DNA of 26,915 nucleotides from a virus (IMGVR_UViG_2541047885_000002:1-26915); one strand, 5' to 3'. Positions 23,325 through 26,915 are shown, numbered from the stretch's first letter. Notes: generated from the letters alone by a model not told the origin. Made by a program: numbers and translations.

Positions 23325-23747
23325 CTAACCATCGGATAGGCGCTCTTTTGCCTCTTCGATTAAATCAGCACAAATAAAAGGTAGCTCTGATGAAACAACT
23401 TCCCAGCCAGATTTTTTAACAACTTCATTTAGCCACTCTTCTCTATCGCGAGTTCCTCTCCTTTTTTCCAAGAGGAAAATTTGCGAGTAAATTTGAATGG
23501 CTTTTTCGTTTAGATAAAACGCATATTGTCTGTTTAAAACAACATCTGCAAGTATATTAACGCCTTCTTGAGTTTTTGCCGCTACATCTGGCTCTACCCC
23601 CATACGAATAGATAGGTCGCATAACTCAACGAATGCACGCTCTTCAGCGTCGTGTTTCATTTTGTAAAAATGTGAAGCTAATTTTTGTGTTTCGGCAAGT
23701 TCCGCCCTTAATTTTTTTATCTTGCTTCTCGTTAATATGCCAAACAC
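23325..23747 (-). CDS. Hypothetical protein, visibly AT-rich gene (accessory)
   Basis: GTG start 5 nt after a strong SD AAGGAGG, giving 140 aa; the track's ATG at 23822 has no SD and is disfavoured. N-terminus charged and probably helical. No family recognised. Confidence 0.55.
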   Translation of the reverse strand: MFGILTRSKIKKLRAELAETQKLASHFYKMKHDAEERAFVELCDLSIRMGVEPDVAAKTQEGVNILADVVLNRQYAFYLNEKAIQIYSQIFLLEKRRGTRDREEWLNEVVKKSGWEVVSSELPFICADLIEEAKERLSDG

Positions 23748-23812
23748 ACCAACCTCCTTAGTTTTGAGCAGGATACCAGATGATAATGTGTAGTTGGAGT
23801 AGCGCGGTTGTA

Positions 23813-23902
23813 ATGCAAGCATTTTGTTTTGGTTTTATGCTTGCTTGTATGTGTGTACAGTGTATATAATGCAAGCATACATCACAACAAAGGTGCTTGC
23901 AT
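23813..23902. promoter_or_regulatory. Divergent promoter region with four copies of a near-palindromic 10-bp motif ATGCWWGCAT, plus a sigma70 promoter for the rightward gene
   Basis: Motif copies at 23813-23822, 23837-23846, 23869-23878 and 23893-23902. Promoter TTGCTT (23841-23846), 18-bp spacer, TATAAT (23865-23870). Motif copies overlap the -35, the -10 and the RBS/start region. Confidence 0.65.
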
Positions 23903-23903
23903 T

Positions 23904-24872
23904 ATGACTGAAAAGAAAAGTGGCGAAGGGAAAGCTAAGGGCGGGATCGCTCGCGCAAAGTCGCTGACTAAAGAGCAGCGTTCTGAAATAGCAAAGAAAG
24001 CAGCTGCTGCAAGATGGAAAAGTAAGATTCTCAGGGCAACTCATCGTGGTAACTTTTTAGATGATTTTGGCATTGATGCTGAATGTTATGTACTGGATGA
24101 CGAGTCGAAAACTGTCGTTGTTACGAAAACTGGATTATCTCAGTTGCTAGGGATTGGTGAACATGCCAGGGATTTAGATCAACTGCTTGGCGCTCAGTAT
24201 ATGAGCAAATACCGAGATCTAGAATTGCAGCGAAAAATGGAAAATCCCTATAAATTTCAACTTACTTCGAAGTCTAAAACCGTTCATCAAGCGTTAGGTT
24301 ATGACATTACAGCAATTGTTGATATTGGTAGGGCACTAATAGAAGCCAAAGATAATGACGATCTACCACAATCACGGTTAAAGGCAGCCGCCGCAGCACA
24401 GAGACTTATTAATGCCTCCGCTAAGGCGGGAATTAAGGGGGTTGCGTATGCGCTTGCTGGTTATCGTCCAGAAGTTCAGGCTGTCATTGACGAGTTCAAA
24501 GCGTTTGTTCGTGAAGAGGCTCGTCAATATGAAAAGGAATTTCCAGATGAGCTATACGAGGAGTGGTATCGACTGTACGGCCTGAATAGGCCAGAGAAAG
24601 GACGGCCTATTCGTTTTGGGCAGCTAACCAACATGCAGATATACACCCCGCTAGCAAAGAGTAAAGGTAAAATCCTTGAACAGATTCGAGCCAGCCGAGA
24701 CGAGAACGGAAAACAATCTGATAAGTTGCATCTGTTCCTTTCTGAAATTGGTGTCAAGGCTTTGCGTCAGCATATCGGTAAGCTTCTTGGTGTCGCAGCG
24801 ATGAGTGAGACAAGAGAAGAATACGAAAAAGGAATAGAAAAGGTTTTCGGAAGAATGAAACCAGAAATCTAA
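23904..24872 (+). CDS. Hypothetical protein, possibly P63C-domain family
   Basis: 322 aa from ATG 23904. N-terminal basic motif KAKGGIARAKSLTKEQRSEIAKKAAAARW followed by ILRATHRGNFLDDFGIDAECYVLDD, which I recall as typical of P63C-domain phage proteins (memory only). Followed by a terminator. Confidence 0.5.
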   Translation: MTEKKSGEGKAKGGIARAKSLTKEQRSEIAKKAAAARWKSKILRATHRGNFLDDFGIDAECYVLDDESKTVVVTKTGLSQLLGIGEHARDLDQLLGAQYMSKYRDLELQRKMENPYKFQLTSKSKTVHQALGYDITAIVDIGRALIEAKDNDDLPQSRLKAAAAAQRLINASAKAGIKGVAYALAGYRPEVQAVIDEFKAFVREEARQYEKEFPDELYEEWYRLYGLNRPEKGRPIRFGQLTNMQIYTPLAKSKGKILEQIRASRDENGKQSDKLHLFLSEIGVKALRQHIGKLLGVAAMSETREEYEKGIEKVFGRMKPEI

Positions 24873-24877
24873 TTATG

Positions 24878-24902
24878 AAACCCACCGTCAGGTGGGTTTT
24901 TT
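24878..24902. terminator. Hairpin terminator between convergent genes (probably bidirectional)
   Basis: AAACCCACC (24878-24886), loop GTCA, GGTGGGTTT (24891-24899), with T-run to 24902; A-rich on the opposite strand. Confidence 0.8.
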
Positions 24903-24927
24903 ATAAGGAGTAATCATGATTTACCCA

Positions 24928-25464
24928 TCAAACAACCCACCAGTTTGCCTGATTGGATACCAGCCTTGCAGTTTTTATGGAATTAATTATGCCATGCTCA
25001 AGAGCCTTGTTAGCATCCAAAATGGTCGAGTCTGCTATCAGGGATGCCCACCTAATATGGGTTCCGATGTCGATATTGAACGTCTCAACGAAGCGATCAA
25101 GATCGTTATCGAGGCATTTCCCGTACTCTCTCAATCTGGCATGGTCGGCGGCTGGGGTGGCAAAGCCCCATAATAGAGGATGTAACAGGAATCTTGATAA
25201 TGGGTTTGCGAAACGTTCTGAGCCAGCCAGGAAAACGATATTAGCTATGGATTCAACATTGCTTATGTTGTGAGTTCTAACGGTAACAGGGAGTGACTTA
25301 AGAAAGTTATACGCAGTAAAGCCAGCGGCAGTTTCCCCTCCCTGACTTGATATATGGATATTTAATTCAGTTGCGCCTTGAGATAATGCGGTGAGACAGT
25401 GGTTCTGAAGTTGCCCAACAGTGGCAGTGTTAACGGGGCATAAGAAATGAATTGTGTGCAGCAT
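24928..25464 (-). CDS. ClpP-family (S14-like) serine peptidase homologue, translationally coupled to the mnt-like gene
   Basis: 178 aa aligning by eye to E. coli ClpP: SQGGETAAG vs SPGGVITAG, catalytic-Ser region ESIANIVFLAG vs ASMGAFLLTAG, His in RFLLHPL vs RVMIHQPL, and an Asp in the IADSTILD region. Its ATG overlaps the mnt stop (TAATG). Confidence 0.65.
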   Translation of the reverse strand: MLHTIHFLCPVNTATVGQLQNHCLTALSQGATELNIHISSQGGETAAGFTAYNFLKSLPVTVRTHNISNVESIANIVFLAGSERFANPLSRFLLHPLLWGFATPAADHARLREYGKCLDNDLDRFVETFNIDIGTHIRWASLIADSTILDANKALEHGIINSIKTARLVSNQANWWVV

Positions 25465-25712
25465 TATTTTTCATCCTTACCATACATGGTCTTTAGCGTC
25501 TCAAGCAGCGCCTCTTTGAATTTGTCAGCTTCTTGCTGAGCAAATGACTCAACTGACTTTGGCGACCTATCTTCATCAATCGCGGCTTGCAAAATCATGA
25601 CGATCTCGGAGTTAACAGAGCGACCATTTTTTGATGCTCTGACAGCAAGAGCCTCGCGTAAAGATTCAGGGATTCTTACCGTAGTTGGAGAAATTGACAC
25701 ACCCTTTGCCAT
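25464..25712 (-). CDS. mnt: Mnt-like ribbon-helix-helix repressor
   Basis: 82 aa with RHH core VRIPESLREALAVRASKNGRSVNSEIVMILQAAI (the NGRSVNSEI signature of the Arc/Mnt family) and a helical C-terminus, same architecture and length as P22 Mnt; divergent from the arc-like gene. Confidence 0.8.
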   Translation of the reverse strand: MAKGVSISPTTVRIPESLREALAVRASKNGRSVNSEIVMILQAAIDEDRSPKSVESFAQQEADKFKEALLETLKTMYGKDEK

Positions 25713-25732
25713 ATCACACCTTTGGTATTCAA

Positions 25733-25744
25733 TTTGATATCAAA
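25733..25744. promoter_or_regulatory. Perfect 12-bp palindrome TTTGATATCAAA in the mnt-arc intergenic region (candidate operator)
   Basis: Lies 21 bp upstream of the mnt start and about 80 bp upstream of the arc-like start, where the P22 immI operators lie; a TTGACT -35-like hexamer is at 25762-25767. Confidence 0.5.
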
Positions 25745-25826
25745 GTGTATGCAAAAAAATTTTGACTAGATATACTCACTTTGCTATCTTTTGTATTCTA
25801 AAAGAGTTGTTTGTGTGGAGGGTAAC

Positions 25827-25979
25827 ATGGAGAAAGAAATAAGTAAGATTTTGGTAAGGATGCCGCAGTCGTTAAAGGATGCTATCGGTAGCAGGGCAAA
25901 GGAAGAGTGCAGGTCGTTTAACTCAGAGGTTATCAAGCGCCTGATAGACAGCCTGAAGAGAGAGGGGATAACGGTATGA
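25827..25979 (+). CDS. arc: Arc-like ribbon-helix-helix repressor
   Basis: 50 aa [50 protein letters not shown], the P22 Arc pattern and size; SD GGAGGG 5 nt upstream. The track's longer ORF from 25791 is rejected. Confidence 0.75.
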   Translation: MEKEISKILVRMPQSLKDAIGSRAKEECRSFNSEVIKRLIDSLKREGITV

Positions 25980-26179
25980 GTAAAGAATGTTGTTTCTGCG
26001 GCATTAGCGAATCAGACGCTGATCAAACATACATTTACTCTAAAGAAACAGGTCGGATGCTGTGTAGTGACTGCGTGTTGGACATCATAAGATACAAGCA
26101 TCTTGGATGTTCTGCCAGCATTAGCAATATAGGTGAAGTATACGAAGGGAAAGATATAACTGATAGAGCAGAAAGTTGA
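25976..26179 (+). CDS. Small Cys-rich (zinc-ribbon-like) protein
   Basis: 67 aa with CCFCG ... CSDC; ATGA overlap with the arc-like stop; between arc and the antirepressor gene. Confidence 0.5.
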
Positions 26180-26241
26180 AGCCCCAACTGCTGGAACAGT
26201 CAGGGCTTCGGTATCAACAAATCGGCTTAGGAAATATTGAC

Positions 26242-26698
26242 ATGAAAAGTATAGCAAAGGCACAAAACGATTTCACCATCTTCAAATTTGGCGACAGTGA
26301 AATTCGCGTCATTAACAAGTGCGGCGAGCCGTGGTTTGTAGCTAAAGATGTTTGTGATGCTTTAGCTTTGACTAACTCACGCAAGGCGCTTACTGCACTT
26401 GATGACGATGAAAAGGGAGTAACTTTAAGTTACACCCTTGGTGGTGAGCAGAATCTAAGCATTGTGAGCGAATCAGGTATGTATACATTGGTTCTGCGCT
26501 GCCGCGATGCAGTCAATAAAGGTTCAGTCCCGCACAAATTCCGCAAGTGGGTAACAGCAGAAGTTCTGCCTTCAATTCGCAAACATGGCGAGTATGTAAA
26601 AGGAAAGAAAACCACTGTTGAGGAAAGAACACCGCTACGCGATGCAGTAAACATGCTGGTAGGAAAGAAAGGACTTCGCTATGACGATGCATACAATA
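26242..26698 (+). pseudogene. ant: Bro-N domain antirepressor (ant position), 3'-truncated by the IS insertion
   Basis: From ATG 26242: [60 protein letters not shown]...[14 protein letters not shown]...[17 protein letters not shown] is a typical Bro-N domain. The ORF runs into IS sequence at 26699. Confidence 0.8.
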
Positions 26699-26915
26699 TG
26701 AACCGCCCCGGGTTTCCTGGAGAGTGTTTTATCTGTGAACTCAGGCTGCCAGATCATCGTTTCCGATGGAAGCATAATAAGCTTTTTCTGCTTCTGCCGG
26801 AGGAGTATGGCCCAGCCTTTCCAGCAATCGTCGATTGTTATACCAGTCCACCCACGTGAGTGTGGCCAGTTCCACTTCTGCACGGTTTTTCCAGCTCTTA
26901 CGGTGTATTACCTCC
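26699..26915 (-). mobile_element. Right-hand end of a second copy of the same IS3-family element, inverted relative to the copy at the window start; the transposase 3' end is read on the minus strand
   Basis: 26699-26790 is the exact reverse complement of 1-92. The minus strand of 26741-26915 encodes ...[45 protein letters not shown]-stop, an IS3-family OrfB C-terminus. The element continues beyond the window. Confidence 0.8.

Follow-up and report, generated by a model that had tools for sequence, protein, structure and literature searches.

A truncated ClpP-fold gene coupled to the Mnt-like repressor gene in the immI region of a P22-like prophage: a probable accessory gene of temperate phages

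Introduction

The closest relative of known structure for the gene described here is "ClpP1" of Pseudomonas plecoglossicida (PpClpP1; PDB 9UXT), characterized by cryo-electron microscopy (PLoS Pathog 2026; PMC12900304). This protein lacks more than 15 N-terminal residues, carries Ser73-His96-Pro151 in place of the catalytic triad, and forms a homotetradecamer with an unusually wide axial pore of 42.7 Å. Its catalytic efficiency is 13-fold below that of the canonical paralogue; substitution of the Ser or His abolishes activity, while a change of the third residue merely lowers it. PpClpP1 does not bind ClpX, yet it joins canonical ClpP in mixed tetradecamers with raised peptidase and ClpX-dependent activity (PMC12900304). 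It was expressed and purified without a partner protein, and the report makes no mention of phages. Two further proteins discussed there, the catalytically weak Listeria ClpP1 and P. aeruginosa ClpP2, have a non-canonical active site, do not bind an unfoldase and are active only in hetero-complexes (PMC12900304). Here we characterize a gene of the PpClpP1 subfamily in a viral sequence of 26,915 nucleotides (IMGVR_UViG_2541047885_000002:1-26915, referred to in its entirety as the window), where it occupies positions 24928..25464 of the minus strand and overlaps the end of a gene for an Mnt-like repressor.

The genetic setting of this gene is the immunity-I (immI) region of P22-like prophages, known to be highly variable, with sieA nearby in P22 (PMC2629481). 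An "ant moron" in the corresponding region of a prophage of Escherichia coli APEC O1 has been drawn as a six-gene region, in which the accompanying text names no Clp or peptidase gene (PMC2629481). We describe below the predicted structure and active site of the ClpP-like protein, the coupling of its gene to mnt, the distribution of its relatives among prophages and chromosomes, and the explanations that may account for its presence.

Results

A short ClpP-fold protein of the PpClpP1 subfamily

The minus-strand open reading frame (ORF) at 24928..25464, encoding 178 amino acids (aa), matched the Pfam family CLP_protease (PF00574, peptidase S14) at 46.7 bits against a cutoff of 20.2 (E 4.3e-12), over profile positions 37-180 of 182. 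A phmmer comparison with PDB sequences returned one standout relative, 9UXT (E 4.6e-35, residues 3-175), with ordinary ClpPs at E 1e-8 or weaker. The AlphaFold2 model, for which a family alignment of 43 sequences (A1) was used that also served to assess residue conservation, reached a mean predicted local distance difference test (pLDDT) value of 93.5; by Foldseek it showed template-modeling (TM) scores of 0.94 to 9UXT and 0.83 to E. coli ClpP, with an alpha/beta fold and a handle region. Ratios of nonsynonymous to synonymous substitution (dN/dS) were 0.08-0.14 against homologues of 53-79% identity, with dS saturated, and therefore indicate strong purifying selection on the minus-strand frame.

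All NCBIfam ClpP models scored far under their cutoffs (22-41 bits versus 228-361), the BFVD viral structure library provided distant ClpP-like matches only (13-24% identity), and no defense family in PADLOC-DB 2.0 matched the ClpP-like protein at E<=0.1. An exhaustive search of 1.84 billion cluster representatives (50% clustering) retrieved eight relatives at E<=1e-30 and 525 at E<=1e-10. The best 150 of these 525 were mostly ~180-190 aa in length with alignments beginning at residue 2-5, so that the N-terminal truncation is a trait of the family. Profile search and structure prediction agree in assigning a ClpP-family serine peptidase homologue, as the initial annotation of the window had proposed, and we conclude from sequence and model that the 178-aa ORF is a real gene encoding a short ClpP-fold subunit of the PpClpP1 (9UXT) subfamily. 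The coordinates, strand, length and TAATG overlap with mnt given in that annotation proved exact.

An incomplete triad, a missing N-terminus and a polar docking pocket

Residues of the protein were mapped onto E. coli ClpP, the sequence of which was checked against PDB 1TYF. Ser72 corresponds to E. coli Ser97 and His95 to E. coli His122, and both, together with the oxyanion Gly43 and Arg91, are invariant in the 43 aligned sequences. The column of E. coli Asp171 is occupied by Ser146, and in the family by Ala (21 sequences), Ser (18), Thr (2) or Gly (2); Asp145, beside Ser146, aligns with E. coli Arg170 and is unconserved in the family. As judged from this alignment, the canonical catalytic Asp is absent and the triad only two-thirds kept; the Ser/His/Asp triad suggested initially is retained in its Ser and His and lost in its Asp.

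The protein starts at ClpP strand beta-1 and so lacks some 24 residues that mature ClpP has at its N-terminus (axial loop and helix A), and the initial statement that the protein follows ClpP across its length holds for the fold and not for this N-terminal part. The pocket that corresponds to the ClpX/ClpA IGF/IGL-loop site is polar, with the changes Y60N, Y62H, F82S, I90H, L114N, L189K and F49A (E. coli numbering).

Several further positions are conserved. Glu71, just before the nucleophile Ser72, is kept in at least 90% of sequences at a site where canonical ClpP has Ala; Glu113, Asp121 and Arg124 of the handle helix are invariant in alignment A1; and a C-terminal NWWV(x)C motif, at residues 173-177 of the window protein, is conserved in the enterobacterial phage branch.

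Coupling to mnt and exchange of immunity specificities

The upstream gene (25464..25712, minus strand) encodes an 82-aa Mnt-like ribbon-helix-helix (RHH) repressor, recognized by Pfam Arc (PF03869, E 9.6e-11) and PHROG_2685 (E 4.7e-32). Its stop codon TAA (25466-25464) shares a nucleotide with the ATG start codon of the ClpP-like gene (25464-25462). The minus-strand junction (25462..25478), read directly from the sequence as AAGGATGAAAAATAATG, comprises an AAGGA Shine-Dalgarno element within the last mnt codons (25478-25474), a spacer of 9 nt and the TAATG stop/start overlap (25466-25462).

For comparison of genomic context, 80 loci were retrieved from IMG/VR and analysed by script; where individual loci are cited they are denoted by L numbers. 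Within the clade sharing at least 79% identity, every locus with intact upstream sequence (33/33) is coupled to an Mnt-like gene by the same TAATG junction, and the surrounding A(A/T)AATAATG is identical in all 33. Among the coupled Mnt proteins six or more types of N-terminal (DNA-binding) half can be told apart, with 36-100% identity to the Mnt of the window, and all Mnt alleles linked to a ClpP-like gene have in common the C-terminal sequence ...ETLKTMYGKDEK, the codons of which hold the ribosome-binding site. One of these types has what we take to be the N-terminus of P22 Mnt, and the region upstream of the P22-type alleles presumably matches the P22 mnt and arc operators. The ClpP-like protein is 98-100% identical across coupled loci, a single locus (L035, 79%) excepted. 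Because this protein is near-constant while the N-termini of Mnt vary, the gene travels with the 3' end of mnt, recombining with different immunity specificities.

A prophage of E. coli G749 lacks the gene in an otherwise syntenic region, the P63C-domain gene that neighbors it in the window leading there directly to mnt, and the ClpP-like gene is therefore best described as an accessory indel. In phage PhiR12_1 (L002, 6048-8060), as in L015-L019 and L025, the whole mnt/ClpP-like/arc/ant cassette lies between tail genes L and K. Its occurrence in these lambda-like siphoviruses implies exchange of the immI module, ClpP-like gene included, between podoviruses and siphoviruses. In phage E212 (L003, 6021-6557) the ClpP-like gene is intact and unannotated, mnt is a 41-codon remnant, and the remainder of immI is missing before the tailspike gene. 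The APEC O1 prophage with the "ant moron" noted above carries the ClpP-like gene (L098); in prophages of the APEC O1/ATCC 11775 type the convergent neighbor is an annotated YafO-family toxin gene (3553-4002 of L098), which replaces the P63C-domain gene.

Distribution of the gene and its stand-alone relatives

Of 5,426 complete E. coli genomes, 128 carry the gene at a nucleotide identity of at least 99%, in each case on the chromosome; it also occurs in phages EC.P3, phiv205-1, E212 and the lambda-like PhiR12_1/4/5. The initial impression that it had gone undescribed is accordingly not sustained: the gene is already in databases, where RefSeq names the product "ATP-dependent Clp protease proteolytic subunit" in those 128 genomes and the phiv205-1 record "head maturation protease", and the subfamily has a structure (PMC12900304). 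Both product names are unsupported. A literature search across 8 million papers and preprints, covering phage or prophage ClpP morons, ClpP-like proteins with an RHH partner, immI together with Clp, and the PhiR12 phages gave nothing relevant. Two features appear to be undescribed: the wide occurrence of this subfamily among the accessory genes of temperate phages, and the fixed link of one of its clades to the Mnt maintenance repressor.

Among relatives of 50-74% identity no RHH ORF is coupled upstream; most occur alone, in antisense orientation, with ~200 bp of upstream sequence of their own, in lambdoid, Mu/P2-like and other prophages. The slots occupied lie between the lysis cassette (Rz/LysC) and terminase genes of lambdoid prophages, between a Q-type antiterminator gene and holin gene (L051), between the tape-measure gene and Mu-like baseplate genes, beside Gin/Hin-type invertase and tail-fiber genes and, in Chromobacterium, between lysis and tail-fiber genes; in Proteus prophages the gene sits in the leftward early (PL) operon between N and erf/ssb. 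When flanking ORFs of at least 110 aa are considered, the uncoupled gene is antisense to both neighbors in 28 of 44 loci and to one in another 12. Its presence or absence, exemplified by G749, and its antisense orientation, both here and in most uncoupled loci, give the gene the signature of a moron as defined previously (PMC2629481; PMC3594210). Linkage to mnt is constant in one clade, and most of the family occupies prophage positions away from immI.

The clade of PpClpP1 itself comprises a conserved chromosomal gene of 183 aa in Pseudomonas, Azotobacter and Stutzerimonas, adjoining genes for a KGG stress protein and a DUF6555 protein; given this chromosomal context, the idea that PpClpP1 is prophage-borne was discarded.

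A number of stand-alone homologues (L042-L048 and L060, at about -130 to -1; also L050, L053 and L084) share a conserved upstream block. It consists of a hairpin GAGCCACCTCTGGAAGTGGCTC and, after it, at ~100 nt from the start codon, a palindrome TTCATGAAATTATTTCATCC, for which a second upstream type has CATGAGAATATTTCATG. The palindrome is a candidate operator. SOS control of the stand-alone homologues was considered and rejected, as loose matches to the LexA box (CTG-N10-CAG) were only sporadic and their positions unconserved. In loci L064-L070 a same-strand ORF of 182 aa ends 78 bp upstream of the homologue; it contains an RNKRSH (HEPN-like Rx4H) motif and has a faint match to Abi_2 that is below the cutoff (Pfam E 0.042). 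In one clade of E. coli prophages this ORF may be paired with the ClpP-like gene as an accessory unit.

Organization of the window and its immI region

PHROGs assignments identify the window as the late region of a P22-like prophage, with genes for small and large terminase, portal, scaffold, major head protein, head-closure proteins and three ejection proteins in P22 order. Portal, scaffold and coat genes are consecutive, with no protease gene between them, which bears out the initial placement of the ClpP-like gene outside a head module devoid of a prohead protease.

The window has an authentic immI region, in which mnt, arc, sar RNA and ant keep the divergent P22 arrangement and the ClpP-like gene is joined to mnt, as first annotated. 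Between mnt and arc lies a divergent control region of 114 bp (25713..25826) with palindromes at 25721-25756 and at 25736-47 paired with 25777-88, and with a sigma70-like rightward promoter at 25762-25790 found by promoter scan. On the plus strand follow the gene for a 50-aa Arc-like repressor (25827..25979; Pfam Arc, E 5.5e-12) and a 67-aa ORF with a CxxC...CxxC pattern (25976..26179; E 3.4e-50 to PHROG_7150, which has no assigned function). We know of no gene between arc and ant in P22; in other prophages a different allele of 57 aa replaces this ORF. A resemblance by eye of the 67-aa product to the ClpX zinc-binding domain was not upheld, since BLASTP aligned only 11 residues (E 0.027), phmmer against PDB gave only weak RING-finger matches, and Pfam gave none.

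The sar antisense RNA (26174..26240, minus strand; Rfam RF00262, 69 bits against a gathering score of 43, E 1.9e-13) overlaps the start of the antirepressor gene ant (26242..26700, plus strand; Bro-N, E 5.8e-20; PHROG_245, E 1.6e-59). The 3' end of ant is lost to an inserted element: homology to the intact loci L027/L028 ends at 26700, and the sequence from 26701 opens with TGAACCGCCCCGGGTTTCCTGGAGAG. On the minus strand, 26741-26875 encodes the C-terminus of a transposase of IS3-family type, and we take the element to be IS629/IS1203-like. With ant interrupted at 26700, the antirepressor is probably inactive in the window prophage.

On the other side, between the last ejection-protein gene and mnt, is a variable region that includes a 165-aa ORF (23325-23822, minus strand), without a match in Pfam, PHROGs, NCBIfam or PADLOC, and a 347-aa P63C-domain gene (23829-24872, plus strand; PHROG_2384, without assigned function). 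PADLOC likewise returned nothing for Mnt or the P63C protein. A GC-rich hairpin (24878..24903) separates the convergent P63C and ClpP-like genes, with folding energies of -18 and -17.7 kcal/mol (z -4.1 and -3.0) on the two strands; it is likely a two-way terminator, stronger for the plus strand. A consensus terminator scan missed this hairpin, folding confirmed it, and its counterpart in the record of phage Emek is labeled "terminator".

Discussion

On balance we favor, with some reserve, the explanation that the window encodes an accessory ClpP-fold subunit, made in the lysogen and coupled to mnt, with a general role. By analogy to PpClpP1, the protein would form open-pore heptamer or tetradecamer rings with weak, ATPase-independent peptidase activity that depends on Ser and His; it would be unable to dock ClpX or ClpA itself, and may co-assemble with the ClpP of the host. 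Gene anatomy and comparative context suggest an accessory "moron" gene that was captured into the mnt operon in this clade; as long as the prophage represses ant, Pmnt would drive its transcription and it would be translated with Mnt. In P22 lysogens mnt is expressed and keeps ant off, so that a gene translationally coupled to it would be made in the lysogen. As relatives mostly stand alone in prophage positions without immI, a general role seems preferable to one specific to immI; its most likely form would be to change the substrates of host Clp-type proteases or to break down unfolded or incoming proteins, from which the prophage or the host would profit. Neither head maturation nor an immI-specific function is likely.

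Certain observations weigh against this explanation. A consensus promoter scan found no Pmnt, and co-expression with mnt is deduced from linkage. For oligomeric state, activity and any interaction with E. coli ClpP the guide is a homologue of 38-39.7% identity, which in Pseudomonas is chromosomal, adjoins KGG stress-protein genes and is not in a prophage. No known defense family matches, and the literature search gave no paper on a phage role. The strict coupling to mnt in this clade could, moreover, reflect a functional link with immI.

Among other explanations, a superinfection-exclusion or abortive-infection effector, in which the peptidase would destroy incoming phage proteins (ejection or replication proteins) or trigger host shutdown, deserves to be kept in view as a possibility, if not an expected one. 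The gene occupies the "ant moron" slot that holds sieA in P22 (PMC2629481), its relatives lie in classic hotspots for accessory and defense genes, and its neighbors include the YafO-family toxin of APEC O1-type prophages and, in another clade, the faint Abi_2/HEPN-like ORF. Against this stand the lack of any PADLOC match and the Pseudomonas branch, a conserved chromosomal gene in a stress-gene setting; such a function also overlaps with, rather than excludes, the accessory role that we favor. That the protein is instead a dedicated immI regulator, a protease setting the stability of Ant, Arc or Mnt, had been offered in the initial annotation and would accord with the invariable coupling to mnt in this clade; we consider it improbable, since most contexts of the family are without immI, the ClpP-like protein hardly varies where alleles of Mnt, Arc and Ant have been exchanged, and in the window ant is disrupted while the ClpP-like gene is intact. 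An RHH gene with an overlapping downstream gene is also the typical antitoxin-toxin layout, from which a type II pair of Mnt-like antitoxin and toxic protease might be proposed. This does not hold, since the protein mostly occurs with no such partner: homologues largely stand alone with no RHH gene upstream, and PpClpP1 needed none for purification (PMC12900304). The partner here is, furthermore, a full Mnt, whose DNA-binding half is freely exchanged, with divergent arc, sar and ant, and we judge a toxin-antitoxin pair very improbable.

The two names under which the gene is currently filed lead to further alternatives. A head-maturation (prohead) protease is indicated by the phiv205-1 GenBank annotation and by matches to PHROG_94 (E 5e-21) and NCBIfam NF045542 (E 3.7e-13), yet the latter reaches 49.7 bits where the curated cutoff is 120. 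The gene runs opposite to the late operon and lies past the ejection-protein genes, 9 kb from the coat gene on its downstream side; the same gene occurs among tail genes of lambda-like and Mu-like phages, and the scaffold of P22-type heads exits intact. A function in head maturation is hardly to be entertained. The RefSeq product name and the ClpP fold would suit an ordinary ATP-dependent ClpP subunit working directly with ClpX or ClpA, an assignment that we find very hard to credit in view of the low NCBIfam scores, the absent N-terminal loops, the polar docking pocket, and a homologue that does not bind ClpX (PMC12900304). There is, finally, an 85-aa ORF on the opposite strand (24916-25173, plus strand), which the initial annotation had mentioned as the possible real gene. 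Family matches, a confident fold and dN/dS of ~0.08 all attach to the minus frame, and every homologue has antisense open stretches of 61-95 codons regardless of its sequence, as is consistent with composition; the chance that this ORF is the real gene is negligible, and it was rejected.

A bolder proposal, which we advance as speculation and ourselves think doubtful, is that temperate phages of Enterobacterales spread a lysogen-made, truncated ClpP that joins the host ClpP barrel, by insertion or by stacking, and thereby redirects ClpXP/ClpAP proteolysis. Among the substrates of these proteases are host regulators and such key phage proteins as lambda O and Mu repressor variants, and a phage ClpP subunit co-expressed with a lysogeny-maintenance repressor would let the prophage alter host proteolysis. 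If this were true, superinfecting phages might, for example, lose their replication or ejection proteins faster, or prophage induction might be tuned, and the phage subunits would represent a previously unrecognized class of phage-encoded modulators of host proteases, wired in this clade to the Mnt maintenance circuit. Independently of that proposal, the survey connects a considerable number of accessory genes in prophages with a ClpP "paralogue" newly characterized in Pseudomonas, offers a testable hypothesis to both fields, and flags "head maturation protease" and "ATP-dependent Clp protease proteolytic subunit" as misleading annotations.

Compared with known systems, the protein shares a ClpP-like domain with the ClpP-related head maturation proteases (PHROG_94, NF045542), from which it differs in its sub-cutoff score, position and orientation, in having no fused scaffold or capsid domain, and in belonging to a phage type without a prohead protease. 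Uncoupled members of the family resemble the lambdoid moron bor of lambda in lying antisense just downstream of lysis genes with ~200 bp of their own upstream region; the bor product, a lipoprotein, is unrelated, and lysogen expression of the ClpP-like morons is presumed. Listeria ClpP1 and P. aeruginosa ClpP2 are chromosomal paralogues and not close in sequence (PDB matches at E 1e-5 or weaker).

The region as a whole follows the P22 immI/"ant moron" plan, with mnt, arc, sar RNA and ant all in the P22 arrangement, and departs from it in the appended ClpP-like gene, the 67-aa ORF between arc and ant, and the insertion sequence that cuts ant; to our knowledge no gene is translationally coupled to mnt in P22. 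With E. coli ClpP (MEROPS S14) the protein shares the fold (TM 0.83), the catalytic Ser and His, the oxyanion Gly and Arg118, but their identity is ~21%, and the phage protein has no propeptide or N-terminal gating loops, a replaced Asp171, a polar IGF/IGL-loop pocket and a handle three residues shorter. PpClpP1 is the nearest counterpart, homologous over its full length (~180 aa) at 39.7% identity by tblastn and 38% by Foldseek, likewise without the N-terminal axial loop and helix A, and likewise retaining Ser and His with a third position other than Asp. That third position is Ser146 in the phage protein and Pro in PpClpP1, and whereas PpClpP1 is chromosomal, beside KGG stress-protein genes, the phage gene is prophage-borne and joined to the mnt operon.

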